DNA from: Dendrobates tinctorius
Taxonomy: Eukaryota
DNA length: 64,000 bases
Direction: 5' to 3'
Assembly: GCF_039654945.1 (NCBI RefSeq)
Contig: NW_027361824.1
Location: 12,772,001-12,836,000, forward strand
A model generated the notes under the pieces. The model was not told the origin of the DNA. It worked only from the letters and a program-made list of their open reading frames with translations, and made no database searches. The stretch's first letter is position 1. Each line of letters starts with the position of its first letter. Positions 1 to 55,650 of this stretch are shown in pieces. Position numbers and translations under genes: made by a program.

Positions 1-3000
1 CTCCCTCCATCTCAGACACTGTGCTCCCCCTTGCTCCCCCCATCTCAGACACTGTGCTCCCCCTTGCTCCCTCCATCTCAGACACTGTGCTCCCCCTTGC
101 TCCCCTCCATCTCAGACACTGTGCTCCCTCCATCTCAGACACTGTGCTCCCCCTTGCTCCCTCCATCTCAGACACTGTGCTCCCCCTTGCTCCCCCCATC
201 TCAGACACTGTGCTCCCCCTTGCTCCCTCCATCTCAGACACTGTGCTCCCCCTTGCTCCCCCCATCTCAGACACTGTGCTCCCTCCATCTCAGACACTGT
301 GCTCCCCCTTGCTCCCTCCATCTCAGACACTGTGCTCCCCCTTGCTCCCCCCATCTCAGACACTGTGCTCCCCCTTGCTCCCTCCATCTCAGACACTGTG
401 CTCCCCTCCATCTCAGACACTGTGCTCCCCCTTGCTCCCTCCATCTCAGACACTGTGCTCCCCCTTGCTCCCCCCATCTCAGACACTGTGCTCCCCCTTG
501 CTCCCTCCATCTCAGACACTGTGCGCCCCCTTGCTCCCCTCCATCTCAGACACTGTGCTCCCCCTTGCTCCCCTCCATCTCACTGTGCTCCCCCTTGCTC
601 CCTCCATCTCAGACACTGTGCTCCCCCTTGCTCCCCCCCATCTCAGACACTGTGCTCCCCCTTGCTCCCCCCCATCTCAGACACTGTGCTCCCCCTTGCT
701 CCCCTCCATCTCAGACACTGTGCTCCCCCTTGCTCCCCTCCATCTCAGACACTGTGCCCCCCCTTGCACCCCCCCATCTCAGACACTGTGCTCCCCCTTG
801 CTCCCCCCCATCTCAGACACTGTGCTCCCCCTTGCTCCCCTCCATCTCAGACACTGTGCTCCCCCTTGCTCCCCTCCATCTCAGACACTGTGCTCCCCCT
901 TGCTCCCCCCCATCTCAGACACTGTGCTCCCCCCCATCTCAGACACTGTGCTCCCCCTTGCTCCCCTCCATCTCAGACACTGTGCTCCCCCTTGCTCCCC
1001 TCCATCTCAGACACTGTGCTCCCCTCCATCTCAGACACTGTGCTCCCCCATCTCAGACACTGTGCTCCCCCTTGCTCCCTCCATCTCAGACACTGCGCGC
1101 TCCCCTTGCTCCCCTCCATCTCAGACACTGTGCGCTCCCCTTGCTCCCCTCCATCTCAGACACTGTGCGCCCCCTTGCTCCCCCCATCTCAGACACTGTC
1201 ATCCCCCTTGATCCCTCCATCTCAGACACTGTGCTCCCCCTTGCTCCCCTCCATCTCAGACACTGTGCTCCCCCCCATCTCAGACACTGTGCTCCCCCTT
1301 GCTCCCTCCATCTCAGACACTGTGCTCCCCATCTCAGACACTGTGCTCCCCCTTGCTCCCCTCCATCTCAGACACTGTGCGCCCCCTTGCTCCCCTCCAT
1401 CTCAGACACTGTGCTCCCCCTTGCTCCCCTCCATCTCAGACACTGTGCTCCCCCTTGCTCCCCTCCATCTCAGACACTGTGCTCCCCCTTGCTCCCCATC
1501 TCAGACACTGTGCTCCCCCTTGCTCCCCTCCATCTCAGACACTGTGCCCCCCCTTGCTGCCCCCATCTCAGACACTGTGCCCCCCCCTTGCTCCCCTCCA
1601 TCTCAGACACTGTGCTCCCCATTGCTCCCTCCATCTCAGACACTGTGCGCCCCCTTGCTCCCCTCCATCTCAGACACTGTGCGCCCCCTTGCTCCCCTCC
1701 ATCTCAGACACTGTGCTCCCCCTTGCTCCCTCCATCTCAGACACTGTGCTCCCCCTTGCTCCCTCCATCTCAGACACTGTGCTCCCCCTTGCTCCCTCCA
1801 TCTCAGACACTGTGCTCCCCCCCATCTCAGACACTGTGCTCCCCCTTGCTCCCCCCATCTCAGACACTGTGCTCCCCCCCATCTCAGACACTGTGCTCCC
1901 CCTTGCTCCACCCCCATCTCAGACACTGTGCTCCCCCTTGCTCCCCCCCATCTCAGACACTGTGCTCCCCCTTGCTCCCTCCATCTCAGACACTGTGCTC
2001 CCCCTTGCTCCCCCCCATCTCAGACACTGTGCTCCCCCTTGCTCCCCCCATCTCAGACACTGTGCTCCCCCTTGCTCCCCCCCATCTCAGACACTGTGCT
2101 CCCCCTTGCTCCCTCCATCTCAGACACTGTGCTCCCCCCATCTCAGACACTGTGCTCCCCCTTGCTCCCCCCATCTCAGACACTGTGCTCCCCCCCATCT
2201 CAGACACTGTGCTCCCCCTTGCTCCACCCCCATCTCAGACACTGTGCTCCCCCTTGCTCCCCCCCATCTCAGACACTGTGCTCCCCCTTGCTCCCTCCAT
2301 CTCAGACACTGTGCGCCCCCTTGCTCCCTCCATCTCAGACACTGTGCTCCCCCTTGCTCCCCCCATCTCAGACACTGTGCTCCCCCTTGCCCCCCCCCAT
2401 CTCAGACACTGTGCTCCCCCTTGCTCCCTCCATCTCAGACACTGTGCTCCCCCTTGCTCCCCTCCATCTCAGACACTGTGCTCCCCCTTGCTCCCCCCAT
2501 CTCAGACACTGTGCTCCCCCTTGCTCCCCCCCATCTCAGACACTGTGCTCCCCCTTGCTCCCTCCATCTCAGACACTGTGCTCCCCCTTGCTCCCCCCAT
2601 CTCAGACACTGTGCTCCCCCTTGCTCCCTCCATCTCAGACACTGTGCTCCCCCTTGCTCCCTCCATCTCAGACACTGTGCTCCCCCTTGCTCCCCTCCAT
2701 CTCAGACACTGTGCTCCCCCTTGCTCCCTCCATCTCAGACACTGTGCTCCCCCTTGCTCCCCTCCATCTCAGACACTGTGCGCCCCCTTGCTCCCTCCAT
2801 CTCAGACACTGAGCTCCCCCTTGCTCCCATCTCAGACACTGTGCTCCCCCTTGCTCCCCCCCATCTCAGACACTGTGCTCCCCCTTGCTCCCTCCATCTC
2901 AGACACTGTGCTCCCCCTTGCTCCCCTCCATCTCAGACACTGTGCTCCCCCTTGCTCCCCCCATCTCAGACACTGTGCTCCCCCTTGCTCCCCCCATCTC

Positions 3001-6000
3001 AGACACTGTGCTCCCCCTTGCTCCCCCCCATCTCAGACACTGTGCTCCCCCTTGCTCCCTCCATCTCAGACACTGTGCTCCCCCTTGCTCCCCCCATCTC
3101 AGACACTGTGCTCCCCCTTGCTCCCTCCATCTCAGACACTGTGCTCCCCCTTGCTCCCTCCATCTCAGACACTGTGCTCCCCTCCATCTCAGACACTGTG
3201 CTCCCCCTTGCTCCCTCCATCTCAGACACTGTGCTCCCCCTTGCTCCCCTCCATCTCAGACACTGTGCTCCCCCTTGCTCCCCTCCATCTCAGACACTGT
3301 GCGCCCCCTTGCTCCCTCCATCTCAGACACTGTGCTCCCCCTTGCTCCCCTCCATCTCAGACACTGTGCTCCCCCTTGCTCCCCCCATCTCAGACACTGT
3401 GCTCCCTCCATCTCAGACACTGTGCTCCCCCTTGCTCCCTCCATCTCAGACACTGTGCTCCCCCTTGCTCCCCCCATCTCAGACACTGTGCTCCCCCTTG
3501 CTCCCTCCATCTCAGACACTGTGCTCCCCCTTGCTCCCCTCCATCTCAGACACTGTGCTCCCTCCATCTCAGACACTGTGCTCCCCCTTGCTCCCTCCAT
3601 CTCAGACACTGTGCTCCCCCTTGCTCCCCTCCATCTCAGACACTGTGCGCCCCCTTGCTCCCTCCATCTCAGACACTGTGCTCCCCCTTGCTCCCCTCCA
3701 TCTCAGACACTGTGCTCCCCCTTGCTCCCCCCATCTCAGACACTGTGCTCCCTCCATCTCAGACACTGTGCTCCCCCTTGCTCCCTCCATCTCAGACACT
3801 GTGCTCCCCCTTGCTCCCCTCCATCTCAGACACTGTGCTCCCCCTTGCTCCCTCCATCTCAGACACTGTGCTCCCCCTTGCTCCCCCCATCTCAGACACT
3901 GTGCTCCCTCCATCTCAGACACTGTGCTCCCCCTTGCTCCCTCCATCTCAGACACTGTGCTCCCCCCATCTCAGACACTGTGCTCCCCCTTGCTCCCCCC
4001 ATCTCAGACACTGTGCTCCCCCTTGCTCCCTCCATCTCAGACACTGTGCTCCCCCTTGCTCCCTCCATCTCAGACACTGTGCTCCCCCTTGCTCCCCCCC
4101 ATCTCAGACACTGTGCTCCCCCTTGCCCCCCCCCATCTCAGACACTGTGCTCCCCCTTGCCCCCCCCATCTCAGACACTGTGCTCCCCCTTGCTCCCCCC
4201 ATCTCAGACACTGTGCTCCCCCTTGCTCCCCCCCATCTCAGACACTGTGCTCCCCCTTGCTCCCTCCATCTCAGACACTGTGCTCCCCCCATCTCAGACA
4301 CTGTGCTCCCCCCCATCTCAGACACTGTGCTCCCCCTTGCTCCACCCCCATCTCAGACACTGTGCTCCCCCTTGCTCCCCCCATCTCAGACACTGTGCTC
4401 CCCCTTGCTCCCCCCATCTCAGACACTGTGCTCCCCCTTGCTCCCCTCCATCTCAGACACTGTGCGCCCCCTTGCTCCCCCCATCTCAGACACTGTGCTC
4501 CCCCTTGCTCCCCCCATCTCAGACACTGTGCTCCCCCTTGCTCCCCCCCATCTCAGACACTGTGCTCCCCCTTGCTCCCTCCATCTCAGACACTGTGCTC
4601 CCCCTTGCTCCCCCCATCTCAGACACTGTGCTCCCCCTTGCTCCCCCCCATCTCAGACACTGTGCGCCCCCTTGCTCCCCCCATCTCAGACACTGTGCTC
4701 CCCCTTGCTCCCCCCATCTCAGACACTGTGCTCCCCCTTGCTCCCCCCCATCTCAGACACTGTGCTCCCCCTTGCTCCCTCCATCTCAGACACTGTGCTC
4801 CCCCCATCTCAGACACTGTGCTCCCCCTTGCTCCCCCCATCTCAGACACTGTGCTCCCCCTTGCTCCACCCCCATCTCAGACACTGTGCGCCCCCTTGCT
4901 CCCCCCATCTCAGACACTGTGCTCCCCCTTGCTCCCCCCATCTCAGACACTGTGCTCCCCCTTGCTCCCCCCCATCTCAGACACTGTGCTCCCCCTTGCT
5001 CCCTCCATCTCAGACACTGTGCTCCCCCTTGCTCCCCCCATCTCAGACACTGTGCTCCCCCCCATCTCAGACACTGTGCTCCCCCTTGCTCCACCCCCAT
5101 CTCAGACACTGTGCTCCCCCTTGCTCCCCCCCATCTCAGACACTGTGCTCCCCCTTGCTCCCTCCATCTCAGACACTGTGCGCCCCCTTGCTCCCTCCAT
5201 CTCAGACACTGTGCTCCCCCTTGCTCCCCCCATCTCAGACACTGTGCTCCCCCTTGCTCCCCCCCATCTCAGACACTGTGCTCCCCCTTGCTCCCTCCAT
5301 CTCAGACACTGTGCTCCCCCTTGCTCCCCTCCATCTCAGACACTGTGCTCCCCCTTGCTCCCCCCATCTCAGACACTGTGCTCCCCCTTGCTCCCCCCAT
5401 CTCAGACACTGTGCTCCCCCTTGCTCCCCCCCATCTCAGACACTGTGCTCCCCCTTGCTCCCTCCATCTCAGACACTGTGCTCCCCCTTGCTCCCCCCAT
5501 CTCAGACACTGTGCTCCCCCTTGCTCCCTCCATCTCAGACACTGTGCTCCCCCTTGCTCCCTCCATCTCAGACACTGTGCTCCCCCTTGCTCCCCTCCAT
5601 CTCAGACACTGTGCTCCCCCTTGCTCCCTCCATCTCAGACACTGTGCTCCCCCTTGCTCCCCTCCATCTCAGACACTGTGCGCCCCCTTGCTCCCTCCAT
5701 CTCAGACACTGTGCTCCCCCTTGCTCCCCCCATCTCAGACACTGTGCTCCCCCTTGCTCCCCCCCATCTCAGACACTGTGCTCCCCCTTGCTCCCTCCAT
5801 CTCAGACACTGTGCTCCCCCTTGCTCCCCTCCATCTCAGACACTGTGCTCCCCCTTGCTCCCCCCATCTCAGACACTGTGCTCCCCCTTGCTCCCCCCAT
5901 CTCAGACACTGTGCTCCCCCTTGCTCCCCCCCATCTCAGACACTGTGCTCCCCCTTGCTCCCCCCATCTCAGACACTGTGCTCCCCCCCATCTCAGACAC

Positions 6001-9000
6001 TGTGCTCCCCCTTGCTCCACCCCCATCTCAGACACTGTGCTCCCCCTTGCTCCCCCCCATCTCAGACACTGTGCTCCCCCTTGCTCCCTCCATCTCAGAC
6101 ACTGTGCGCCCCCTTGCTCCCCCCCATCTCAGACACTGTGCTCCCCCTTGCTCCCCCCATCTCAGACACTGTGCTCCCCCTTGCTCCCCCCCATCTCAGA
6201 CACTGTGCTCCCCCTTGCTCCCTCCATCTCAGACACTGTGCTCCCCCCATCTCAGACACTGTGCTCCCCCTTGCTCCCCCCATCTCAGACACTGTGCTCC
6301 CCCCCATCTCAGACACTGTGCTCCCCCTTGCTCCACCCCCATCTCAGACACTGTGCTCCCCCTTGCTCCCCCCCATCTCAGACACTGTGCTCCCCCTTGC
6401 TCCCTCCATCTCAGACACTGTGCGCCCCCTTGCTCCCTCCATCTCAGACACTGTGCTCCCCCTTGCTCCCCCCATCTCAGACACTGTGCTCCCCCTTGCT
6501 CCCCCCCATCTCAGACACTGTGCTCCCCCTTGCTCCCTCCATCTCAGACACTGTGCTCCCCCTTGCTCCCCTCCATCTCAGACACTGTGCTCCCCCTTGC
6601 TCCCCCCATCTCAGACACTGTGCTCCCCCTTGCTCCCCCCATCTCAGACACTGTGCTCCCCCTTGCTCCCCCCCATCTCAGACACTGTGCTCCCCCTTGC
6701 TCCCTCCATCTCAGACACTGTGCTCCCCCTTGCTCCCCCCATCTCAGACACTGTGCTCCCCCTTGCTCCCTCCATCTCAGACACTGTGCTCCCCCTTGCT
6801 CCCTCCATCTCAGACACTGTGCTCCCCCTTGCTCCCCTCCATCTCAGACACTGTGCTCCCCCTTGCTCCCTCCATCTCAGACACTGTGCTCCCCCTTGCT
6901 CCCCTCCATCTCAGACACTGTGCGCCCCCTTGCTCCCTCCATCTCAGACACTGTGCTCCCCCTTGCTCCCCCCATCTCAGACACTGTGCTCCCCCTTGCT
7001 CCCCCCATCTCAGACACTGTGCTCCCCCTTGCTCCCCCCCATCTCAGACACTGTGCTCCCCCTTGCTCCCTCCATCTCAGACACTGTGCTCCCCCTTGCT
7101 CCCCTCCATCTCAGACACTGTGCTCCCCCTTGCTCCCCCCATCTCAGACACTGTGCTCCCCCTTGCTCCCCCCATCTCAGACACTGTGCTCCCCCTTGCT
7201 CCCCCCCATCTCAGACACTGTGCTCCCCCTTGCTCCCTCCATCTCAGACACTGTGCTCCCCCTTGCTCCCCCCATCTCAGACACTGTGCTCCCCCTTGCT
7301 CCCTCCATCTCAGACACTGTGCTCCCCTCCATCTCAGACACTGTGCTCCCCCTTGCTCCCTCCATCTCAGACACTGTGCTCCCCCTTGCTCCCCTCCATC
7401 TCAGACACTGTGCTCCCCCTTGCTCCCCTCCATCTCAGACACTGTGCTCCCCCTTGCTCCCCTCCATCTCAGACACTGTGCGCCCCCTTGCTCCCTCCAT
7501 CTCAGACACTGTGCGCCCCCTTGCTCCCTCCATCTCAGACACTGTGCTCCCCCTTGCTCCCCTCCATCTCAGACACTGTGCTCCCCCTTGCTCCCCCCAT
7601 CTCAGACACTGTGCTCCCTCCATCTCAGACACTGTGCTCCCCCTTGCTCCCTCCATCTCAGACACTGTGCTCCCCCTTGCTCCCCCCATCTCAGACACTG
7701 TGCTCCCCCTTGCTCCCTCCATCTCAGACACTGTGCTCCCCCTTGCTCCCCTCCATCTCAGACACTGTGCTCCCTCCATCTCAGACACTGTGCTCCCCCT
7801 TGCTCCCTCCATCTCAGACACTGTGCTCCCCCTTGCTCCCCCCATCTCAGACACTGTGCTCCCCCTTGCTCCCTCCATCTCAGACACTGTGCTCCCCCTT
7901 GCTCCCCCCATCTCAGACACTGTGCTCCCTCCATCTCAGACACTGTGCTCCCCCTTGCTCCCTCCATCTCAGACACTGTGCTCCCCCTTGCTCCCCCCAT
8001 CTCAGACACTGTGCTCCCCCTTGCTCCCTCCATCTCAGACACTGTGCGCCCCCTTGCTCCCCTCCATCTCAGACACTGTGCTCCCCCTTGCTCCCCTCCA
8101 TCTCACTGTGCTCCCCCTTGCTCCCTCCATCTCAGACACTGTGCTCCCCCTTGCTCCCCCCCATCTCAGACACTGTGCTCCCCCTTGCTCCCCCCCATCT
8201 CAGACACTGTGCTCCCCCTTGCTCCCCTCCATCTCAGACACTGTGCTCCCCCTTGCTCCCCTCCATCTCAGACACTGTGCCCCCCCTTGCACCCCCCCAT
8301 CTCAGACACTGTGCTCCCCCTTGCTCCCCCCCATCTCAGACACTGTGCTCCCCCTTGCTCCCCTCCATCTCAGACACTGTGCTCCCCCTTGCTCCCCTCC
8401 ATCTCAGACACTGTGCTCCCCCTTGCTCCCCCCCATCTCAGACACTGTGCTCCCCCCCATCTCAGACACTGTGCTCCCCCTTGCTCCCCTCCATCTCAGA
8501 CACTGTGCTCCCCCTTGCTCCCCTCCATCTCAGACACTGTGCTCCCCTCCATCTCAGACACTGTGCTCCCCCATCTCAGACACTGTGCTCCCCCTTGCTC
8601 CCTCCATCTCAGACACTGCGCGCTCCCCTTGCTCCCCTCCATCTCAGACACTGTGCGCCCCCTTGCTCCCCCCATCTCAGACACTGTCATCCCCCTTGAT
8701 CCCTCCATCTCAGACACTGTGCTCCCCCTTGCTCCCCTCCATCTCAGACACTGTGCTCCCCCCCATCTCAGACACTGTGCTCCCCCTTGCTCCCTCCATC
8801 TCAGACACTGTGCTCCCCATCTCAGACACTGTGCTCCCCCTTGCTCCCCTCCATCTCAGACACTGTGCGCCCCCTTGCTCCCCTCCATCTCAGACACTGT
8901 GCTCCCCCTTGCTCCCCTCCATCTCAGACACTGTGCTCCCCCTTGCTCCCCTCCATCTCAGACACTGTGCTCCCCCTTGCTCCCCATCTCAGACACTGTC

Positions 9001-12000
9001 CTCCCCCTTGCTCCCCTCCATCTCAGACACTGTGCCCCCCCTTGCTGCCCCCATCTCAGACACTGTGCCCCCCCCTTGCTCCCCTCCATCTCAGACACTG
9101 TGCTCCCCATTGCTCCCTCCATCTCAGACACTGTTCGCCCCCTTGCTCCCCTCCATCTCAGACACTGTGCGCCCCCTTGCTCCCCTCCATCTCAGACACT
9201 GTGCTCCCCCTTGCTCCCTCCATCTCAGACACTGTGCTCCCCCTTGCTCCCTCCATCTCAGACACTGTGCTCCCCCTTGCTCCCTCCATCTCAGACACTG
9301 TGCTCCCCCCATCTCAGACACTGTGCTCCCCCTTGCTCCCCCCATCTCAGACACTGTGCTCCCCCCCATCTCAGACACTGTGCTCCCTCTTGCTCCACCC
9401 CCATCTCAGACACTGTGCTCCCCCTTGCTCCCCCCCATCTCAGACACTGTGCTCCCCCTTGCTCCCTCCATCTCAGACACTGTGCGCCCCCTTGCTCCCC
9501 CCCATCTCAGACACTGTGCTCCCCCTTGCTCCCCCCATCTCAGACACTGTGCTCCCCCTTGCTCCCCCCCATCTCAGACACTGTGCTCCCCCTTGCTCCC
9601 TCCATCTCAGACACTGTGCTCCCCCCATCTCAGACACTGTGCTCCCCCTTGCTCCCCCCATCTCAGACACTGTGCTCCCCCCCATCTCAGACACTGTGCT
9701 CCCCCTTGCTCCACCCCCATCTCAGACACTGTGCTCCCCCTTGCTCCCCCCCATCTCAGACACTGTGCTCCCCCTTGCTCCCTCCATCTCAGACACTGTG
9801 CGCCCCCTTGCTCCCTCCATCTCAGACACTGTGCTCCCCCCATCTCAGACACTGTGCTCCCCCTTGCTCCCCCCCATCTCAGACACTGTGCTCCCCCTTG
9901 CTCCCTCCATCTCAGACACTGTGCTCCCCCTTGCTCCCCTCCATCTCAGACACTGTGCTCCCCCTTGCTCCCCCCATCTCAGACACTGTGCTCCCCCTTG
10001 CTCCCCCCATCTCAGACACTGTGCTCCCCCTTGCTCCCCCCCATCTCAGACACTGTGCTCCCCCTTGCTCCCTCCATCTCAGACACTGTGCTCCCCCTTG
10101 CTCCCCCCATCTCAGACACTGTGCTCCCCCTTGCTCCCTCCATCTCAGACACTGTGCTCCCCCTTGCTCCCTCCATCTCAGACACTGTGCTCCCCCTTGC
10201 TCCCCTCCATCTCAGACACTGTGCTCCCCCTTGCTCCCTCCATCTCAGACACTGTGCTCCCCCTTGCTCCCCTCCATCTCAGACACTGTGCGCCCCCTTG
10301 CTCCCTCCATCTCAGACACTGTGCTCCCCCTTGCTCCCCCCATCTCAGACACTGTGCTCCCCCTTGCTCCCCCCATCTCAGACACTGTGCTCCCCCTTGC
10401 TCCCTCCATCTCAGACACTGTGCTCCCCTTTGCTCCCCTCCATCTCAGACACTGTGCTCCCCCTTGCTCCCCCCATCTCAGACACTGTGCTCCCCCTTGC
10501 TCCCCCCATCTCAGACACTGTGCTCCCCCTTGCTCCCCCCCATCTCAGACACTGTGCTCCCCCTTGCTCCCTCCATCTCAGACACTGTGCTCCCCCTTGC
10601 TCCCCCCATCTCAGACACTGTGCTCCCCCTTGCTCCCTCCATCTCAGACACTGTGCTCCCCCTTGCTCCCTCCATCTCAGACACTGTGCTCCCCTCCATC
10701 TCAGACACTGAGCTCCCCCTTGCTCCCTCCATCTCAGACACTGTGCTCCCCCTTGCTCCCCTCCATCTCAGACACTGTGCTCCCCCTTGCTCCCCTCCAT
10801 CTCAGACACTGTGCGCCCCCTTGCTCCCTCCATCTCAGACACTGTGCTCCCCCTTGCTCCCCTCCATCTCAGACACTGTGCTCCCCCTTGCTCCCCCCAT
10901 CTCAGACACTGTGCTCCCTCCATCTCAGACACTGTGCTCCCCCTTGCTCCCTCCATCTCAGACACTGTGCTCCCCCTTGCTCCCCCCATCTCAGACACTG
11001 TGCTCCCCCTTGCTCCCTCCATCTCAGACACTGTGCTCCCCCTTGCTCCCCTCCATCTCAGACACTGTGCTCCCTCCATCTCAGACACTGTGCTCCCCCT
11101 TGCTCCCTCCATCTCAGACACTGTGCTCCCCCTTGCTCCCCTCCATCTCAGACACTGTGCGCCCCCTTGCTCCCTCCATCTCAGACACTGTGCTCCCCCT
11201 TGCTCCCCTCCATCTCAGACACTGTGCTCCCCCTTGCTCCCCCCATCTCAGACACTGTGCTCCCTCCATCTCAGACACTGTGCTCCCCCTTGCTCCCTCC
11301 ATCTCAGACACTGTGCTCCCCCTTGCTCCCCTCCATCTCAGACACTGTGCTCCCCCTTGCTCCCTCCATCTCAGACACTGTGCTCCCCCTTGCTCCCCCC
11401 ATCTCAGACACTGTGCTCCCTCCATCTCAGACACTGTGCTCCCCCTTGCTCCCTCCATCTCAGACACTGTGCTCCCCCTTGCTCCCCCCATCTCAGACAC
11501 TGTGCTCCCCCTTGCTCCCCCCATCTCAGACACTGTGCTCCCCCTTGCTCCCTCCATCTCAGACACTGTGCTCCCCCTTGCTCCCCCCCATCTCAGACAC
11601 TGTGCTCCCCCTTGCTCCCCCCCATCTCAGACACTGTGCTCCCCCTTGCCCCCCCCCATCTCAGACACTGTGCTCCCCCTTGCCCCCCCATCTCAGACAC
11701 TGTGCTCCCCCTTGCTCCCCCCATCTCAGACACTGTGCTCCCCCTTGCTCCCCCCCATCTCAGACACTGTGCTCCCCCTTGCTCCCTCCATCTCAGACAC
11801 TGTGCTCCCCCCATCTCAGACACTGTGCTCCCCCTTGCTCCCCCCATCTCAGACACTGTGCTCCCCCCCATCTCAGACACTGTGCTCCCCCTTGCTCCAC
11901 CCCCATCTCAGACACTGTGCTCCCCCTTGCTCCCCCCCATCTCAGACACTGTGCTCCCCCTTGCTCCCCCCATCTCAGACACTGTGCTCCCCCTTGCTCC

Positions 12001-15000
12001 CCCCCATCTCAGACACTGTGCTCCCCCTTGCTCCCCCCATCTCAGACACTGTGCTCCCCCTTGCTCCCTCCATCTCAGACACTGTGCTCCCCCCATCTCA
12101 GACACTGTGCTCCCCCTTGCTCCCCCCATCTCAGACACTGTGCTCCCCCTTGCTCCACCCCCATCTCAGACACTGTGCGCCCCCTTGCTCCCCCCCATCT
12201 CAGACACTGTGCTCCCCCTTGCTCCCCCCATCTCAGACACTGTGCTCCCCCTTGCTCCCCCCATCTCAGACACTGTGCTCCCCCTTGCTCCCTCCATCTC
12301 AGACACTGTGCTCCCCCCATCTCAGACACTGTGCTCCCCCTTGCTCCCCCCATCTCAGACACTGTGCTCCCCCCCATCTCAGACACTGTGCTCCCCCTTG
12401 CTCCACCCCCATCTCAGACACTGTGCTCCCCCTTGCTCCCCCCCATCTCAGACACTGTGCTCCCCCTTGCTCCCTCCATCTCAGACACTGTGCGCCCCCT
12501 TGCTCCCTCCATCTCAGACACTGTGCTCCCCCTTGCTCCCCCCATCTCAGACACTGTGCTCCCCCTTGCTCCCCCCCATCTCAGACACTGTGCTCCCCCT
12601 TGCTCCCTCCATCTCAGACACTGTGCTCCCCCTTGCTCCCCTCCATCTCAGACACTGTGCTCCCCCTTGCTCCCCCCATCTCAGACACTGTGCTCCCCCT
12701 TGCTCCCCCCATCTCAGACACTGTGCTCCCCCTTGCTCCCCCCCATCTCAGACACTGTGCTCCCCCTTGCTCCCTCCATCTCAGACACTGTGCTCCCCCT
12801 TGCTCCCCCCATCTCAGACACTGTGCTCCCCCTTGCTCCCTCCATCTCAGACACTGTGCTCCCCCTTGCTCCCTCCATCTCAGACACTGTGCTCCCCCTT
12901 GCTCCCCTCCATCTCAGACACTGTGCTCCCCCTTGCTCCCTCCATCTCAGACACTGTGCTCCCCCTTGCTCCCCTCCATCTCAGACACTGTGCGCCCCCT
13001 TGCTCCCTCCATCTCAGACACTGTGCTCCCCCTTGCTCCCCCCATCTCAGACACTGTGCTCCCCCTTGCTCCCCCCATCTCAGACACTGTGCTCCCCCTT
13101 GCTCCCTCCATCTCAGACACTGTGCTCCCCCTTGCTCCCCTCCATCTCAGACACTGTGCTCCCCCTTGCTCCCCCCATCTCAGACACTGTGCTCCCCCTT
13201 GCTCCCCCCATCTCAGACACTGTGCTCCCCCTTGCTCCCCCCCATCTCAGACACTGTGCTCCCCCTTGCTCCCTCCATCTCAGACACTGTGCTCCCCCTT
13301 GCTCCCCCCATCTCAGACACTGTGCTCCCCCTTGCTCCCTCCATCTCAGACACTGTGCTCCCCCTTGCTCCCTCCATCTCAGACACTGTGCTCCCCTCCA
13401 TCTCAGACACTGTGCTCCCCCTTGCTCCCTCCATCTCAGACACTGTGCTCCCCCTTGCTCCCCTCCATCTCAGACACTGTGCTCCCCCTTGCTCCCCTCC
13501 ATCTCAGACACTGTGCGCCCCCTTGCTCCCTCCATCTCAGACACTGTGCTCCCCCTTGCTCCCCTCCATCTCAGACACTGTGCTCCCCCTTGCTCCCCCC
13601 ATCTCAGACACTGTGCTCCCTCCATCTCAGACACTGTGCTCCCCCTTGCTCCCTCCATCTCAGACACTGTGCTCCCCCTTGCTCCCCCCATCTCAGACAC
13701 TGTGCTCCCCCTTGCTCCCTCCATCTCAGACACTGTGCTCCCCCTTGCTCCCCTCCATCTCAGACACTGTGCTCCCCCTTGCTCCCTCCATCTCAGACAC
13801 TGTGCTCCCCCTTGCTCCCCTCCATCTCAGACACTGTGCGCCCCCTTGCTCCCTCCATCTCAGACACTGTGCTCCCCCTTGCTCCCCTCCATCTCAGACA
13901 CTGTGCTCCCCCTTGCTCCCCCCATCTCAGACACTGTGCTCCCTCCATCTCAGACACTGTGCTCCCCCTTGCTCCCTCCATCTCAGACACTGTGCTCCCC
14001 CTTGCTCCCCTCCATCTCAGACACTGTGCTCCCCCTTGCTCCCTCCATCTCAGACACTGTGCTCCCCCTTGCTCCCCCCATCTCAGACACTGTGCTCCCT
14101 CCATCTCAGACACTGTGCTCCCCCTTGCTCCCTCCATCTCAGACACTGTGCTCTCCCTTGCTCCCCCTATCTCAGACACTGTGCTCCCCCTTGCTCCCCC
14201 CATCTCAGACACTGTGCTCCCCCTTGCTCCCCCCATCTCAGACACTGTGCTCCCTCCATCTCAGACACTGTGCTCCCCCTTGCTCCCCTCCATCTCAGAC
14301 ACTGTGCTCCCCCTTGCTCCCTCCATCTCAGACACTGTGCTCCCCCTTGCTCCCCTCCATCTCAGACACTGTGCTCCCCCTTGCTCCCTCCATCTCAGAC
14401 ACTGTGCTCCCTCCATCTCAGACACTGTGCTCCCCCTTGCTCCCTCCATCTCAGACACTGTGCTCCCCCTTGCTCCCCCCATCTCAGACACTGTGCTCCC
14501 TCCATCTCAGACACTGTGCTCCCCCTTGCTCCCTCCATCTCAGACACTGTGCTCCCCCTTGCTCCCCCCATCTCAGACACTGTGCTCCCCCTTGCTCCCC
14601 CCATCTCAGACACTGTGCTCCCCCTTGCTCCCCCCATCTCAGACACTGTGCTCCCTCCATCTCAGACACTGTGCTCCCCCTTGCTCCCCTCCATCTCAGA
14701 CACTGTGCTCCCCCTTGCTCCCTCCATCTCAGACACTGTGCTCCCCCTTGCTCCCCCCATCTCAGACACTGTGCTCCCCCTTGCTCCCCTCCATCTCAGA
14801 CACTGTGCTCCCCCTTGCTCCCTCCATCTCAGACACTGTGCTCCCCCTTGCTCCCCTCCATCTCAGACACTGTGCTCCCTCCATCTCAGACACTGTGCTC
14901 CCCCTTGCTCCCTCCATCTCAGACACTGTGCTCCCCCTTGCTCCCCCCATCTCAGACACTGTGCTCCCCCTTGCTCCCCCCATCTCAGACACTGTGCGCC

Positions 15001-15495
15001 CCCTTGCTCCCTCCATCTCAGACACTGTGCTCCCCCTTGCTCCCTCCATCTCAGACACTGTGCTCCCCCTTGCTCCCTCCATCTCAGACACTGTGCTCCC
15101 CCTTGCTCCCTCCATCTCAGACACTGTGCTCCCCCTTGCTCCCTCCATCTCAGACACTGTGCTCCCCCTTGCTCCCTCCATCTCAGACACTGTGCTCCCC
15201 CTTGCTCCCTCCATCTCAGACACTGTGCTCCCCCTTGCTCCCTCCATCTCAGACACTGTGCTCCCCCTTGCTCCCTCCATCTCAGACACTGTGCTCCCCC
15301 TTGCCCCCCCCCATCTCAGACACTGTGCTCCCCCTTGCTCCCCCCATCTCAGACACTGTGCCCCCCCTTGCTCCCCCCATCTCAGACACTGTGCTCCCCC
15401 TTGCTCCCTCCATCTCAGACACTGTGCTCCCCTCCATCTCAGACACTGTGCTCCCCCTTGCTCCCCTCCATCTCAGACACTGTGCTCCCCCTTGC
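1..15495. repeat. Large minisatellite/satellite array, ~33-bp unit (CATCTCAGACACTGTGCTCCCCCTTGCTCCCTC) with 23-35 bp variants; runs off the left edge
   Basis: Unit read directly, roughly 470 copies. C-rich + strand. The unit has no TAA/TAG/TGA, which explains the multi-kb ORFs in all three + frames. Confidence 0.98.
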
Positions 15496-15677
15496 ACACT
15501 CTCACGCACTCCCTTTCACGTCACATTCATGGCAGAAGGAGAATTTCTTCTCATGAACTCCAGAAAAGGCAAAGGAGGCAATAATAACCCGACAACAACC
15601 TCGATGTACCAGACACCAGAACACCGCTGCAGAAGAACTACACCTCCCAGCAAGCTTCGCGCTGCAGCCGCATCTGT

Positions 15678-47991: not shown

Positions 47992-49246
47992 TACACTATA
48001 GACGTATAGGGTAACACAGCCGACACCTGGCCCTATACAGACACTATAGACGTATAGGGTAACACAGCCGACACCTGGCCCTATACAGGCACTATAGACG
48101 TATAGGGTAACACAGCCGACACCTGGCCCTATACAGACACTATAGACGTATAGGGTAACACAGCCGGCACCTGGCCCTATACAGGCACTATAGACGTATA
48201 GGGTAACACAGCCGACACCTGGCCCTATACAGGCACTATAGACGTATAGGGTAACACAGCCAACACCTGGCCCTATACAGACACTATAGACGTATAGGGT
48301 AACAGCCGACACCTGGCCCTATACAGACACTATAGACGTATAGGGTAACACAGCCGACACCTGGCCCTATACAGGCACTATAGACGTATAGGGTAACACA
48401 GCCAACACCTGGCCCTATACAGGCACTATAGACGTATAGGGTAACACAGCCAACACCTGGCCCTATACAGACACTATAGACGTATAGGGTAACACAGCCG
48501 ACACCTGGCCCTATACAGGCACTATAGACGTATAGGGTAACACAGCCGATACCTGGCCCTATACAGGCACTATAGACGTATAGGGTAACACAGCCGACAC
48601 CTGGCCTTATACAGACACTATAGACGTATAGGATAACACAGCCGACACCTGGCCCTATACAGGCACTATAGACGTATAGGGTAACACAGCCGACACCTGG
48701 CCCTATACAGGCACTATAGACGTATAGGGTAACACAGCCAACACCTGGCCCTATACAGGCACTATAGACGTATAGGGTAACACAGCCAACACCTGGCCCT
48801 ATACAGACACTATAGACGTATAGAGTAACACAGCCGACACCTGGCCCTATATAGGCACTATAAATGTATAGGGTAACAGCCGACACCTGGCCCTATACAG
48901 GCACTATAGACGTATAGGGTAAGACAGCCGACACCTGGCCCTATACAGGCACTATAGACGTATAGGGTAACACAGCCGACACCTGGCCCTATACAGGCAC
49001 TATAGACGTATAGGGTAACACAGCCGACAACTGGCCCTGTACAGGCACTATAGACGTATAGGGTAACACAGCCGACACCTGGCCCTATACAGGCACTATA
49101 GACGTATAGGGTAACACAGCCGACACCTGGCCCTATACAGGCACTATAGACGTATAGGGTAACACAGCCGACACCTGGCCCTATACAGGCACTATAGACG
49201 TATAGGGTAACACAGCCGACACCTGGCCCTATACAGACACTATAGA
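47992..49246. repeat. 48-bp minisatellite (CACTATAGACGTATAGGGTAACACAGCCGACACCTGGCCCTATACAGG)
   Basis: About 26 tandem copies; each has an internal GTATAGGG/CCCTATAC inverted repeat. Confidence 0.96.
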
Positions 49247-49437
49247 CCAGGGGAAGAGTCTTGAGGAGATCATTTGCATATTTCCAGTGCCTTCTGGGAT
49301 AAGTGAAGAGTCTCCGCGAGCTCAACGATCACTGGGTTTTGGCCGTTGCAGCTGAAAAGAGGAAATCGGAAAACCAGGGGAAGAGTCTTGAGGAGATAAT
49401 TTTGGCTCATCTTTCATCGTTTTTAAGAAATCTCAAG

Positions 49438-50399
49438 ATGGAAGAGGCCAGGAGCCATTTGGTGAGCTGCATTTCTTGCTACATGTTCACAGATTTACCA
49501 GTGGAAAAGCCAAACTTCACATGCCACAAATGCAGCTTGTGTCCCTGTTGGAGGAAAAGTTGCAAAATCTCGAAGAGAGGTTAGCTACATTGAAGATCAT
49601 TAAGGAAGGTGAAGAGTTCTTGGACAGAGCAGAATTATCTCTTCATGTTACAGAAAGAGAAGAAATTCGAAGTGCACCTGAAGAAACAGAGGAATGGAGA
49701 CATGTGACCCAGAGAAGCAGGAGGATCAGGAGGCAGTCAGCACCCATACTGCTCAGGAACCAGTACCAGGCTCTCACGCAGGAAAACAATGAAGAAATAC
49801 ATCAGGATAAGACTTTGCCAACAAACAGCAACCTTGTACGCCTTCAGAGTCCTCCTGGATGGAGAAAGAAAAATGTTGTGAAGAAGAAACGGAGAGTGGT
49901 GGTCATGGGGGATTCCCTGCTGAGAGGAACAGAGGCCGCTATCTGCAGACCGGATATAACTTCAAGAGAAATGTGCTGTCTTCCAGGTGCAAAAATTAAA
50001 GATGTGTCTGACAGGATATCAGGACTCTTCAGACCTACAGATGACTACCCATTCCTGCTACTACATGTGGGGACAAATGACACCGCAAGAAACGACCTGG
50101 AAACCATCTGCAGAGACTTTGAAGACTTAGGCAAGAAAGTGAAAGAACTGGGAGCGCAGGTGGTCTTCTCTTCCATCCTCCCAGTGGATGGCCATGGAAC
50201 AAGGAGGTGGAATAAGATTCTGCAGGTGAACAACTGGCTACGTCGATGGTGCCGTCAGCAACGATTTGGATTTCTGGATCACGGAGTGAACTACTTATAC
50301 GATGGACTACTTGCTAGAGATGGGGTGCACCTTACGAAGACTGGAAAGCATGTATTTGGAAGTCGCCTTGCTACACTTGTAAGGAAAGCTTTAAACTAG
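49438..50399 (+). CDS. CR1 ORF1 (zinc finger/coiled coil + SGNH esterase) with a 1-nt frameshift near 49535
   Basis: MEEARSHLVSCISC...CHKC zinc finger in one frame; LVSLLEEKLQNLEERL, VVMGDSLLRG, HVGTND and DGVHL in the next; ends ALN*. Confidence 0.88.
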
Positions 50400-50578
50400 A
50401 ACAACATGGGAAGGGAAGCAAAAGACCAGAAAAAGCCATACACCTGACAAATGCTATTGAGAACTCTGCTATTAGAAGTGGAAAGGAAGAACAAAGACGA
50501 AAGAATCTAATTAATAAAAATATTGGAGAAAGAGAAACCAATCACAAACTAAAATGTTTCTATACTAATGCACAAAGC

Positions 50579-53311
50579 ATGGGCAACAAACAAGGAGAAT
50601 TGGAACTACTAACACAGGAAAAGAAATATGATGTCATTGGAATCACTGAAACTTGGTGGGGCAATACACATGATTGGAATACAAGACTAGAGGGATACAA
50701 CTTATTTGCAAGAAACAGACTTGATAAACGAGGAGGGGGTGTCGCATTGTATGTTAGAAACGCGTATATCTGCACAGAGATTGAAGCTTCAGAGACTGGG
50801 AGTTCTGTGGAAACTGTTTGGGTAAGAATACAAGGACAGAACAATGGAAAGGACACCATTGTAGGCATTTACTACAGGCCGCCTGTGCAAGCTGAAGATA
50901 TGGATGAACTCTTTATGCATCAAATGGCCAAGTTCTCCAAAAAATATGACATAGTTGTCATGGGAGATTTCAACTATCCAGACATTTGTTGGGAATCTCT
51001 CTCAGGCAAAACTAACAGGTCAAGGAAATTCTTATCCTCTCTTGCTGACAACTTTATCTTCCAAAAGGTAGGGGAGAAAACAAGGGGAACTGCTACCTTG
51101 GATCTAATCCTTATAAACAGGGAGGAAATGGTTGAGGAGGTAAAAGTGGCTGGAACCCTAGGAGGTAGCGACCATGCTATTTTAGAATTTTGCATAACTA
51201 GAGGAGGAAGACCTGTGAAGACTCAGACATCAAGGTTAGATTTCATAAAGGCAGATTTTAAGGGATTCAGAAAGATAATTGGAGGGATCCAATGGCTGGA
51301 TATCCTTAAAGACAAAAATGTCCAGGAAGGATGGGATATCTTGAAAAATGAAATTCTCAAAGCACAGTTGTTAACAATTCCGAAAAGAGGGAAAAATAGG
51401 AAGCATTTAAGGAAACCAGGATGGGTGAACACAGAACTTAAGCACATGCTAAAAAGGAAGAAAAAAATGTTTATAAAATGGAAAGAGGGAGGCATATCTA
51501 AAGAAGAATATAATGCTGTCTGCAGAACCTGCAGGGCACAAATCAGATTATCTAAAGCTGACAATGAATTGAGGCTTGCAAGAGATGTCAAAAGCAATAA
51601 TAAAGGATTTTGGGGATATGTCAAAAGTAAAAGAAAAGTCAAAGATGCTATAGGATTTTTACAGGATGAAAATGATGAAATGGTAAGACAGGATGTTGAG
51701 AAGGCTGAACTTTTAAATTCCTATTTTGCATCTGTTTTCTCTCAGAAAGGAAATGTAACATCAACTGTTATTCACTGTCCTATTAAGGGAATAGAAGAAT
51801 CCAGGATATCTATAAACAGAAAGATAGTGAGGAAACACTTAGCTAACCTAAATGAATTCAAGTCTCCAGGTCCAGATGAATTACACCCCAGAGTACTGAA
51901 GGAGATAGCAGAAGAAATTTTTGAACCCCTCTCCATAATCTTTGAAAATTCTTGGAGAACAGGAGAAGTGCCAGAAGACTGGAGAAGAGCAAATGTTGTT
52001 CCTATCTTCAAAAAGGGGAAGAAGGTGAACCCAGGCAACTATAGGCCGGTGAGTCTGACTTCTATACCAGGAAAGATCTTTGAACAAATTATTAAACAAC
52101 ATGTATGTCAATACCTGGATAAGAATGAAGTGATTAAACAGAGTCAGCATGGGTTTGTAACTAATAAGTCATGTCAGACTAACTTAATTTCCTTCTATGA
52201 CGGTATCACTGATTGGGTGGATCAAGGAAATGCTGTAGATATAGTATATCTTGACTTCAGCAAAGCATTTGACAAAGTCTCTCATACAATCCTTATTGAA
52301 AAAATGACTAAGTATGGAATGGACAAGGCAACTGTTAGGTGGATTCATAACTGGCTTAGTGATCGGACCCAAAGAGTGGTCGTAAATGGCTGCACATCCA
52401 GTTGGAAGAATGTCTCAAGTGGGGTACCACAGGGCTCTGTCCTGGGCCCTGTATTGTTCAACATCTTTATCAACGATTTAGATGAAGGAATTGAGGGTAA
52501 ACTGATTAAATTTGCTGATGACACAAAGCTAGGAGGGATAGCTAATACTAGAGAAGCGAGAGAGAGGATTCAAAAAGATTTAAATAAACTGGAGAAGTGG
52601 GCAGCAACTAACAGAATGGTTTTTAACAGGGAGAAATGCAAAGTACTACATCTGGGCAATAAAAATGAAAAAAGCATATACAGAATGGGAGGAATAGGGC
52701 TAAGCAACAGCACATGTGAAAAAGACTTGGGTATACTAATAGATCACAGACTGAATATGAGTCAACAGTGTGATGCAGCAGCAAAAAAGACAAATGCAAT
52801 TCTAGGATGTATTAACAGAAGCATACACTCTAGATCACGTGAAGTCATTATTTCCCTCTACTCCTCTTTGGTCAGACCTCATCTGGAATATTGTGTCCAG
52901 TTTTGGGCACCACATTTTAAAAAAGACATCAACAAACTGGAGCAAGTTCAGAAAAGAGCGACCAGAATGGTGACCGGTCTGCAAACCCTGTCTTATGAGG
53001 AAAGGTTGCAGGATTTGGGAATGTTTAGTTTGCAAAAGAGAAGACTGAGAGGAGACTTAATAGCTGTCTACAAATATCTAAAGGGCTGTCACATTGTAGA
53101 AGGATCAACTTTATTCTCATTTGCACAAGGAAAGACTAGAAGCAATGGGATGAAACTGAATGGGAGGAGACACAGATTAGATATTAGAAAAAACTTTTTG
53201 ACAGTTAGAGTGATCAATGAGTGGAACAGGCTGCCACGAGAAGTTGTGAGTTCTCCTTCAATGGAAGTCTTCAAACAGAGGCTGGACAGACATCTGACTG
53301 GGATGATTTAG
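50579..53311 (+). CDS. CR1 ORF2, APE endonuclease + reverse transcriptase (frame is open upstream to at least 50390)
   Basis: ITETW, GDFN, SDH (APE); KSPGPD, YRPVSL, YLDFSKAFD, GVPQGSVLGP, FADD (RT); uninterrupted 910 aa. Confidence 0.96.
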   Translation: MGNKQGELELLTQEKKYDVIGITETWWGNTHDWNTRLEGYNLFARNRLDKRGGGVALYVRNAYICTEIEASETGSSVETVWVRIQGQNNGKDTIVGIYYRPPVQAEDMDELFMHQMAKFSKKYDIVVMGDFNYPDICWESLSGKTNRSRKFLSSLADNFIFQKVGEKTRGTATLDLILINREEMVEEVKVAGTLGGSDHAILEFCITRGGRPVKTQTSRLDFIKADFKGFRKIIGGIQWLDILKDKNVQEGWDILKNEILKAQLLTIPKRGKNRKHLRKPGWVNTELKHMLKRKKKMFIKWKEGGISKEEYNAVCRTCRAQIRLSKADNELRLARDVKSNNKGFWGYVKSKRKVKDAIGFLQDENDEMVRQDVEKAELLNSYFASVFSQKGNVTSTVIHCPIKGIEESRISINRKIVRKHLANLNEFKSPGPDELHPRVLKEIAEEIFEPLSIIFENSWRTGEVPEDWRRANVVPIFKKGKKVNPGNYRPVSLTSIPGKIFEQIIKQHVCQYLDKNEVIKQSQHGFVTNKSCQTNLISFYDGITDWVDQGNAVDIVYLDFSKAFDKVSHTILIEKMTKYGMDKATVRWIHNWLSDRTQRVVVNGCTSSWKNVSSGVPQGSVLGPVLFNIFINDLDEGIEGKLIKFADDTKLGGIANTREARERIQKDLNKLEKWAATNRMVFNREKCKVLHLGNKNEKSIYRMGGIGLSNSTCEKDLGILIDHRLNMSQQCDAAAKKTNAILGCINRSIHSRSREVIISLYSSLVRPHLEYCVQFWAPHFKKDINKLEQVQKRATRMVTGLQTLSYEERLQDLGMFSLQKRRLRGDLIAVYKYLKGCHIVEGSTLFSFAQGKTRSNGMKLNGRRHRLDIRKNFLTVRVINEWNRLPREVVSSPSMEVFKQRLDRHLTGMI

Positions 53312-53396
53312 CGAATCCTGCTTTGAGCAGGGGGTTGGACCAGATGGCCCAGGAGGTCCCTTCCAACTCTACGATTCTATGATTCTATGATTCTAT

Positions 53397-55650
53397 GACC
53401 CCCGATCAGCCAGGCAGCGACCGCACAGACCCCCGATCAGCCCGGCAGCGCCCGCACAGACCCCCGATCATCCCGGCAGAGCTCGCACAGACCTCCGATC
53501 AGCCCGGCAGAGCCCGCACAGACCCCTGATCAGCCCAGCAGAGCCCACACAGACCTCCGGTCAGCCCGGCAGAGCCCGCACAGACCCCCGATCAGCCCGG
53601 CAGAGCCCGCACAGACCCCCGATCAGCCCGGCAGAGCCCGCACAGACCCCCGATCAGCCCGGCAGAGCCCGCACAGACCCCTGATCAGCCCGGCAGAGCT
53701 CGCACAGACCCCCGATCAGCCCGGCAGAGCTCGCACAGACCCCTGATCAGCCCGGCAGAGCTCGCACAGACCTCCGATCAGCCCGGAAGAGCCCGCACAG
53801 ACCCCCGATCAGCCCGGCAGCGCCCGCACAGACCCCCGATCAGCCCGGCAGAGCTCGCACAGACCTCCGATCAGCCCGGCAGAGCCCGCACAGACCCCCG
53901 ATCAGCCCGGCAGAGCCCGCACAGACCCCCGATCAGCCCGGCAGAGCTCGCACAGACCTCCGATTAGCCCGGAAGAGCCCGCACAGACCCCTGATCAACC
54001 CGGCAGAGCCCGCACAGACCCCCTATCAGCCCGGCAGAGCCTGCACAGACCCCCGATCAGCCAGGCAGCGACCGCACAGACCCCCGATCAGCCCGGCAGC
54101 GCCCGCACAGACCACCGATCATCCCGGCAGAGCTCGCACAGACCTCCGATCAGCCCGGCAGAGCCCGCACAGACCCCTGATCAGCCCGGCAGAGCCCACA
54201 CAGACCTCCGGTCAGCCCGGCAGAGCCCGCACAGACCCCCGATCAGCCCGGCAGAGCCCGCACAGACCCCCGATCAGCCCGGCAGAGCCCGCACAGACCC
54301 CGCACAGACCCCTGATCAGCCCGGCAGAGCTTGCACAGACCCCCGATCAGCCCGGCAGAGCCCGCACAGACCCCCGATCAGCCCGGCAGAGCCCGCACAG
54401 ACCCCTGATCAGCCCGGCAGAGCTTGCACAGACCTCTGATCAGCCCGGAAGAGCCCGCACAGACCCCCGATCAGCCCGGCAGAGCTCGCACAGACCTCCG
54501 ATCAGCCCGGCAGAGCCTGCACAGACCCCCGATCAGCCCGGCAGAGCCCGCACAGACCCCCGATCAGCCCGGCAGAGCTCGCACAGACCCCCGATCAGCC
54601 CGGCAGAGCTCGCACAGACCTCCGATCAGCCCGGAAGAGCCCGCACAGACCCCTGATCAACCCGGCAGAGCCCGCACAGACCCCCTATCAGCCCGGCAGA
54701 GCCCGCACAGACCCCCGATCAGCCCGGCAGAGCCCGCACAGACCCCCGATCAGCCCGGCAGATCCCGCACAGACCCCTGATCAGCCCGGCAGAGCTCGCA
54801 CAGACCCCCGATCAGCCCGGCAGAGCTCGCACAGACCCCCGATCAGCCCGGCAGAGCTCGCACAGACCTCCGGTCAGCCCGGCAGAGCTCGCACAGACCC
54901 CTGATCAGCCCGGCAGAGCCCGCACAGACCCCTGATCAGCCCGGCAGAGCCCGCACAGACCCCTGATCAGCCCGGCAGAGCCCACACAGACCTCCGGTCA
55001 GCCCGGCAGAGCCCGCACAGACCCCTGATCAGCCCGGCAGAGCCCGCACAGACCCCTGATCAGCCCGGCAGAGCTCGCACAGACCCCTGATCAGCCCGGC
55101 AGAGCCCGCACAGACCCCTGATCAGCCCGGCAGAGCTCGCACAGACCCCCGATCAGCCCGGCAGAGCTCGCACAGACCCCCGATCAGCCCGGCAGAGCTC
55201 GCACAGACCCCCGATCAGCCCGGCAGAGCCCGCACAGACCCCCGATCAGCCCGGCAGAGCCCGCACAGACCTTCAGTGAGCCCGGCAGAGCCCGCACAGA
55301 CCTCCAGTGAGCCCGGCAGAGCTCGCACAGACCCCCGATCAGCCAGGCAGCGACCGCACAGACCTCCAGTGAGCCCGGCAGAGCCCGCACAGACCCCTGA
55401 TCAGCCCGGCAGAGCCCGCACAGACCCCTGATCAGCCCGGCAGAGCTCGCACAGACCCCTGATCAGCCCGGCAGAGCCCGCACAGACCCCTGATCAGCCC
55501 GGCAGAGCTCGCACAGACCCCTGATCAGCCCGGCAGAGCCCGCACAGACCCCTGATCAGCCCGGCAGAGCTTGCACAGACCCCCGATCAGCCCGGCAGAG
55601 CCCGCACAGACCTCCAGTCAGCCCGGCAGAGCTTGCACAGACCCCCGCAC
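53397..55650. repeat. 31-bp GC-rich minisatellite (CCCGATCAGCCCGGCAGAGCCCGCACAGACC)
   Basis: About 72 tandem copies read directly. Confidence 0.96.

Follow-up and report, generated by a model that had tools for sequence, protein, structure and literature searches.

We analyzed a window of 64,000 nucleotides (nt) from the frog Dendrobates tinctorius (NCBI RefSeq assembly GCF_039654945.1, contig NW_027361824.1, positions 12,772,001 to 12,836,000; coordinates below are positions within this window). It harbors a CR1 long interspersed nuclear element (LINE) on the forward strand at 49248–53398. As determined by genome matches and domain searches, the element is a near full-length copy of a young family, hereafter F1 (98–100% identity in 40 scored matches out of 194 candidates). 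Its first open reading frame (ORF1; 49438–50399, 320 amino acids (aa) when intact) encodes a zinc finger, a coiled coil and an SGNH esterase. The esterase matched Lipase_GDSL_2 with an E value of 3.6e-7 and 31.3 bits, slightly below the 32.9 cut-off, and the zinc-finger pattern CX2C-X14-CX2C is visible in two intact ORF1 copies (L305 and L307). The nearest ORF1 protein match (98%) is labelled as a dendrobatid frog, and homologues were found in turtle, lizard and bird. The second frame (ORF2; 50390–53311, 973 codons counted from the heptamer described below) is intact and encodes an APE endonuclease and a reverse transcriptase, as identified by domain search, alignment to the L1 element and fold match. 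Instead of poly(A), the 3' untranslated region (UTR; 53312–53398) carries a terminal stem and an 8-bp tail repeat, the latter being a CR1 hallmark. Judged by its ORF1 and ORF2 domains and its 3' end, the element is an ordinary esterase-type CR1. The same composition, namely zinc finger/leucine zipper plus esterase in ORF1, APE and reverse transcriptase in ORF2 and an 8-bp tail, is described for CR1 subgroup 7 with type IVB ORF1 (PMC4120745). Comparison of the junction between the two frames suggests that F1 ORF2 is probably made by programmed -1 ribosomal frameshifting.

The final ORF1 codons, GCT TTA AAC (reading ...RKALN*), contain the slippery heptamer T_TTA_AAC (50390–50396) in ORF1 phase and directly abut a TAG stop (50397–50399). 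An earlier note on this DNA had described this arrangement and proposed a -1 frameshift. On rereading, the heptamer, its phase and the adjacent stop were as described, and ORF2 was confirmed in the -1 frame, which is open from 50318 to 53311 (997 aa), straight through the heptamer, and from 50390 reads FKLEQHGKG...LKCFYTNAQSMG. Only this frame lacks stops in the linker (50400–50548), a stretch of low confidence in the structure model. The note's claim that ORF2 has no usable early ATG also held for this copy: between 50318 and 50600 the sole in-frame ATG of the ORF2 frame lies at 50579–50581, downstream of endonuclease motif I. The Asn of the YTN motif (AAT, 50567–50569) aligns with Asn14 of human L1 ORF2p in a profile alignment. 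It closes the first modelled strand of the endonuclease domain (50549–50569; residues 54–60, block predicted local distance difference test score 91), and initiation at 50579 would therefore delete a core strand. The best fold match of the endonuclease model was the L1 endonuclease (E 1.3e-13); phmmer with the endonuclease alone matched no solved structure, and a profile search did match one. Neither AUG nor a common near-cognate codon (CTG, GTG, TTG, ACG, ATH) occurs in the nine F1 codons after FKL.

The window copy itself carries a one-base deletion in ORF1 at about 49533, just past the zinc finger, and the normal start at ATG 49438 yields a 48-aa peptide. The deletion is seen in assembled contigs from all 4 runs. 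From the normal ORF1 start this copy would not deliver ribosomes to the heptamer, and the proposed signal is therefore a property of family F1 rather than of the single copy. Among 30 close F1 copies, ORF1 is intact in 12, broken in 9 and without a start within the fetched stretch in 9. We collected 148 distinct loci from the 6.36 Gb frog genome by protein or DNA similarity, dropping 3 without a junction and excluding from the copy counts 20 loci that had been picked by pattern. Within F1 the heptamer is kept in 52/53 copies and the -1 phase in all 52 copies with a located endonuclease, 51 of which have no AUG ahead of the motif-I Asn.

Conservation at the codon level was examined in 11 real copies, four representing frog families and seven being bird-like contigs drawn from 67 metagenome loci ("bird-like" meaning that the closest proteins are labelled as birds). 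CR1 loci were found neither in genome_contigs nor in viral_contigs. When frog rows are compared with bird-like rows, synonymous identity is 0.05–0.36, near saturation. Conservation in 10 or more of the 11 rows was seen at 37 degenerate ORF1 columns, and just two of these keep to a single codon: Leu(-2), with TTA in 11/11 (although 7% of the 190 Leu codons are TTA), and Asn(-1), with AAC in 10/10. The heptamer signal exceeds chance because codon invariance is confined to these two codons. In 21 of 22 representatives the heptamer begins with T, though the residue may be Ala, Cys, Ser, Pro or Thr; the lone exception, family F2, has the arterivirus-type G_TTA_AAC (26 of 32 copies, with A_TTA_AAC in 5). 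Bird-like junctions could be placed in 20 of 24 contigs with an ORF1 end; T_TTA is present in all 20 and AAC in 17, and the stops are TAG (14), TAA (3), TGA (2) or decayed (1). The suspicion in the earlier note that an ALN ending is common among CR1 proved right, since 59 of 120 ORF1 homologues end in ALN (followed by TLN 10, ELN 2, FLN 2 and LLN 1), yet conservation extends to the nucleotide level.

A profile search with follow-up retrieved a distant esterase-ORF1 group of 23 proteins with different endings. Twelve end in X-G-N (X being Q in 8, A in 2, K in 1 and V in 1), one in S-K-N, and in five F-F or F-L stands at the terminus or close to it. At the protein level only, G_GGA_AAC, A_AAA_AAC and U_UUU_UUN would translate to such ends. 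Altogether 93 of 115 ORF1 ends fit a heptamer directly before the stop, compared with 220 of the 8,000 possible tripeptides; at control offsets the fit was 48/133 in one case and 0–12 in the others, these counts not being independent since the sequences are related. As the X_XXY_YYZ rule would predict, residues lacking a U-ending codon are found ahead of G-N in 8 of the 11 cases counted and ahead of L-N in 3 of 83. DNA encoding the X-G-N group was found in none of viral_contigs, genome_contigs, plasmids or the frog's own genome, where the search returned 10 loci (7 from F1 or F4 and 3 without a junction).

The phase of ORF2 is kept across linkers of very different length. Leaving aside family F4, eight linker lengths (107, 113, 149, 155, 161, 167, 188 and 281 nt) all preserve the -1 phase. 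Among bird-like copies 8 of 9 are in -1 phase, the old copy L073 being out of phase. In 14 linkers the stop-free frame is -1 in 12, 0 in none and +1 in one, in-phase copies having been chosen as representatives, which is the commonest state in F2 and F3 and not in F4. Turtle and lizard ORF2 proteins, all predicted, read FKLTNVGEG (as in lizard P0128) and SPGEGD in frame with the endonuclease. An upstream start in the -1 frame was rejected, as in 6 of 15 representatives this frame runs into a stop 1–5 codons ahead of the heptamer. A 13-codon mini-ORF in frame 0 (50406–50447, ending CTGA) was likewise discarded as a second stop-start site, its ATG being missing in older F1 copies and its CTG in L005.

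Families F2 and F3 (L031–L060 and L128–L147) are chimeric. Their ORF1 is 76–80% identical to that of F1, and their endonuclease is 64–70% identical to F4 over the full domain and 40–43% to F1. Despite the joining of an F1-like ORF1 to an F4-like ORF2, the -1 phase is retained. Since the F2 and F3 linkers are F1-like for about 35 codons, the module swap took place in the linker or at motif I. ORF1 shuffling between lineages is similarly reported for CR1 subgroup 7 (PMC4120745). Copies with F3-type junctions carry two kinds of 3' UTR, F2-like in L137 and more F4-like in L295 and L297, which suggests further recombination in ORF2. In L160 a short F1 3' fragment sits inside the endonuclease of an F4 copy (around 2000–2270). 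At 69% identity to the frog F1 ORF1, P0003, an ORF1 homologue labelled as tegu lizard, is nearer than most of those from turtles and lizards (45–50%); horizontal transfer is a possible explanation. Another CR1 ORF1, P0034, is filed as a Klebsiella SGNH hydrolase and is probably host contamination in a bacterial assembly.

Conserved letters at the end of ORF1 might also serve a role unrelated to ORF2, such as RNA packaging, protein binding or a needed Leu-Asn end, with ORF2 expressed from a spliced or internally started RNA or by initiation in the linker. The Leu-Asn-stop ending is kept, at the protein level, out to sharks and rays, no stimulator structure was found, and two ATT codons of the F1 linker, at 50456 and 50522, have a favourable context. 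A protein requirement leaves the single codons and the switch to G-N or K-N unexplained, however, and a role outside translation does not account for the phase or for a -1 linker free of stops. A splice acceptor at the TAG was rejected, as the AG is lost in the TAA and TGA lineages. No joint across the junction was found in contigs from 4 of 4 runs, two contigs spanning it without a gap, although this check is weak, covering contigs only from runs whose RNA status is a guess. We regard this explanation as improbable.

Comparative tests were mostly in favour of the frameshifting interpretation put forward in the earlier note, which is supported at the level of sequence. A minority of ribosomes ending ORF1 would slip one base back on U_UUA_AAC, bypass the adjacent stop and translate the linker followed by the endonuclease and reverse transcriptase. 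The predicted product is an ORF1-ORF2 fusion of about 1,290 aa (~149 kDa) beside the 37-kDa ORF1 protein. The stimulator would most likely combine a pause at the adjacent stop with the unpaired G-rich motif, which lies 11 nt downstream and may be recognized by a protein, and would involve no fold. In lineages where an AUG lies close to the stop, reinitiation may operate too. The F1 junction most likely operates as a viral-type -1 site would, minus the canonical 3' structure.

Several observations, given in this and the next two paragraphs, weigh against this interpretation. The DNA sample comprises one frog genome and bird-like metagenome contigs, and 5 of the 23 distant proteins lack a slippery-compatible end. 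Only 19/28 F2 and 21/27 F3 copies, which are older and decayed, are in phase. The proposed lack of an upstream in-frame AUG holds for F1 and fails more widely, as 12 of 14 representatives have one ahead of motif I (both exceptions being F1) and in 8 of 15 an AUG lies within 11 codons of the heptamer. Moreover, according to PMC1965478, L1 retrotransposes with its ORF2 AUG changed to another sense codon, and a missing AUG in F1 is therefore no proof of a fusion. The upstream AUGs outside F1 and this tolerance make termination-reinitiation, as in L1 or SART1, a live rival that may coexist with frameshifting. On this model, translation of ORF1 would end at its stop and resume nearby in the -1 frame, from an AUG or, in F1, from a non-AUG codon; the G-rich motif and the conserved sequence about the stop would act as a reinitiation signal, and the ORF2 protein would be free and unfused. 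An AUG indeed stands at codon 4 of the -1 frame, 2 nt past the stop, in L061, L063, L066, L078 and L105 and at codon 7 in F2 and F3, codon 4 being TTG or ACG in L077 and F4, and a start at a fixed place would likewise fix the phase. Non-AUG starts are tolerated by L1 (PMC1965478) and SART1 uses a stop-start overlap. On the other hand, the nine codons that follow FKL include no start-like codon in F1, L071 or L074, the position of the AUG ranges from codon 3 to 63, and in lineages whose first AUG is 22–34 codons away the frame is still open and in phase all the way back to the heptamer. Reinitiation predicts neither the X_XXY_YYZ word nor its arterivirus-type variant, nor the G-N and K-N endings. 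L1 and SART1 do share with F1 a bicistronic RNA without long terminal repeats (non-LTR) in which ORF2 follows soon after the ORF1 stop (PMC5972666, PMC10275272, PMC3708506 and PMC1965478). Both nonetheless have an ORF2 AUG before the endonuclease, and F1 has no AUG overlapping or near the ORF1 stop there; the SART1-like downstream structure that SART1 requires is also absent from F1. Taken together, we consider reinitiation unlikely as the route to F1 ORF2.

Family F4 is the main exception to the conserved phase, so that the expected conservation of heptamer and phase stood for F1 and the distant lineages and did not for F4, where phase varies among copies. Among the first 100 of 2,519 genomic matches, with spacing counted by hand from match lengths, 17 have the -1 phase, 45 miss it by a deficit of one base and 31 by a deficit of two; in the frog locus set 11 of 29 are in phase. 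The out-of-phase forms, with runs of 7 or 6 G (G7 and G6), also occur in short-read contigs, which rules out assembly error as the source of the short runs. At the F4 junction the run is 8 G long in 6 of 40 copies and 7 in 16 of 40. As controls, coding runs in F4 ORF1 remained unchanged in 12 of 30 unselected copies for G8 and in 32 of 36 for G7. A plain G7 source is disfavoured by the stability of the coding G7 (32/36 vs 16/40 at the junction). A plain G8 source fits better, albeit incompletely (12/30 vs 6/40). Copies with G8 and G7 are intermixed within sub-lineages, and the youngest copies have G8 in 6 of 16. An in-phase G8 source shedding shorter copies is thus the better fit, and is preferred over a G7 source. 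Alternatively, out-of-phase sources could initiate at the AUG at codon 34, a well-placed codon that out-of-phase copies retain and that also speaks for reinitiation. The F4 G8 runs (at 1706 and 2470 in L222) contract very often, in half of unselected copies, whereas runs of G6 and G7 hold their length; this abrupt dependence on run length breaks many F4 copies.

The third difficulty concerns the downstream stimulator. A pseudoknot or hairpin starting 5–9 nt downstream, the canonical signal, is absent. Folding of the 104 nt past the F1 site was poorer than that of shuffled sequence (z +0.98), and local folding of 20 representatives gave no z below -2 and no shared pseudoknot, in agreement with the earlier note, which had seen none. 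We therefore rejected a local hairpin or pseudoknot, as none is present in F1 or common to the 20 representatives; weak pseudoknot candidates appeared only in L076, L085 and L222, and Rfam gave no match above its gathering score. What is conserved instead is a linear G-rich motif at a fixed distance, starting at nt 11–12 after the heptamer and defined by position only. In 22 representatives G occupies positions +11 to +15 in 19, 20, 21, 22 and 17 cases and positions +18 to +21 in 17, 20, 15 and 16. In the window copy the motif is an unpaired GGG-AA-GGG (50408–50415) that begins 12 nt past the heptamer and is a candidate stimulator. Its conservation may instead reflect a need for a Gly-X-Gly peptide or a packaging role. 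In F1, 50409–50416 is the exact reverse complement of 53357–53364 in the 3' terminal stem (8 bp, -15.3 kcal/mol). Long-range pairing was nevertheless rejected, as the 3' strand is paired locally and the F2 3' end shows no matching change (no covariation); the 8-bp match could matter in F1 and bird-type elements.

Rous sarcoma virus provides a precedent for a stop directly after the heptamer, and the motif of the protein-stimulated arterivirus frameshift is C-rich. The CR1 motif, by contrast, is G-rich. According to the frameshifting review PMC5009743, pea enation mosaic virus needs a stop 3 nt after the shift site, and a stimulator that starts 12–15 nt past the site may consist of linear mRNA, trans-acting factors being involved in the characterised cases. 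The arterivirus (nsp1beta with PCBP) and cardiovirus protein-stimulated signals have their 5' end at that distance, similar to the CR1 motif at nt 11–12. The same text lists U_UUA_AAC for infectious bronchitis virus and G_UU(A) for equine arteritis virus; the heptamers and phase are those seen here, as is the layout of a structural ORF upstream of a polymerase ORF in the -1 frame. CR1 differs from these viral sites in lacking a pseudoknot or hairpin 5–9 nt downstream and in having its stop abut the heptamer. Among non-LTR elements, the Dictyostelium APE-type elements TRE5-A and TRE3-A are stated to need a -1 frameshift for ORF2 (PMC5911963); they belong to another clade and host and have no esterase, and the passage concerned names no site or stimulator.

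As a tentative extension, which we consider doubtful in its full form, esterase-type CR1 elements of frogs, birds, lizards, turtles and distant relatives may all make a Gag-Pol-like ORF1-ORF2 fusion. The heptamer would switch among U_UUA_AAC, G_UUA_AAC, G_GGA_AAC and A_AAA_AAC, and in place of an RNA fold, the adjacent stop and a protein seated on the G-rich motif 11 nt downstream would drive the shift in vertebrates, making it a case of protein-stimulated frameshifting within an endogenous element. Our literature search found no paper linking CR1 to ribosomal frameshifting; it did not extend to Kojima 2005, Alisch 2006 or the CR1 papers of 1997, which may mention an overlap. CR1 is unmentioned in 300,000 characters of PMC5009743, and the word "frameshift" is absent from the available text of PMC4120745, which leaves the ORF2 translation route unaddressed. 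PMC3708506 describes ORF2 translation of two-ORF LINEs as unclear outside L1 and SART1, and CR1 is given as the most abundant chicken repeat in PMC11835228. If F1-type junctions do frameshift, ORF2 annotations that begin at the first Met would be in error or too short (two clusters, with 514 and 221 members, begin downstream of motif I), the polymerase would be tethered to the esterase ORF1 protein, and the ORF1:ORF2 ratio would be set as in retroviruses. A structure-free stimulator would be unusual.

The surroundings of the window copy are repetitive. Tandem arrays flank the element, with a 48-bp unit repeated 26 times at 47994–49247 and a 31-bp unit repeated 72 times at 53397–55647, and a target-site duplication is not obvious at its flanks. 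Positions 1–15500 of the window have a GC content of 62% and are strongly skewed (GC skew about -0.6), probably representing a satellite array. In the 5' UTR (49247–49400) a 25-nt motif repeats at a distance of about 127–129 nt, and contigs loop back 127 nt at this place. This recurrence reads as tandem 5' monomers, of which the window copy may lack further units.

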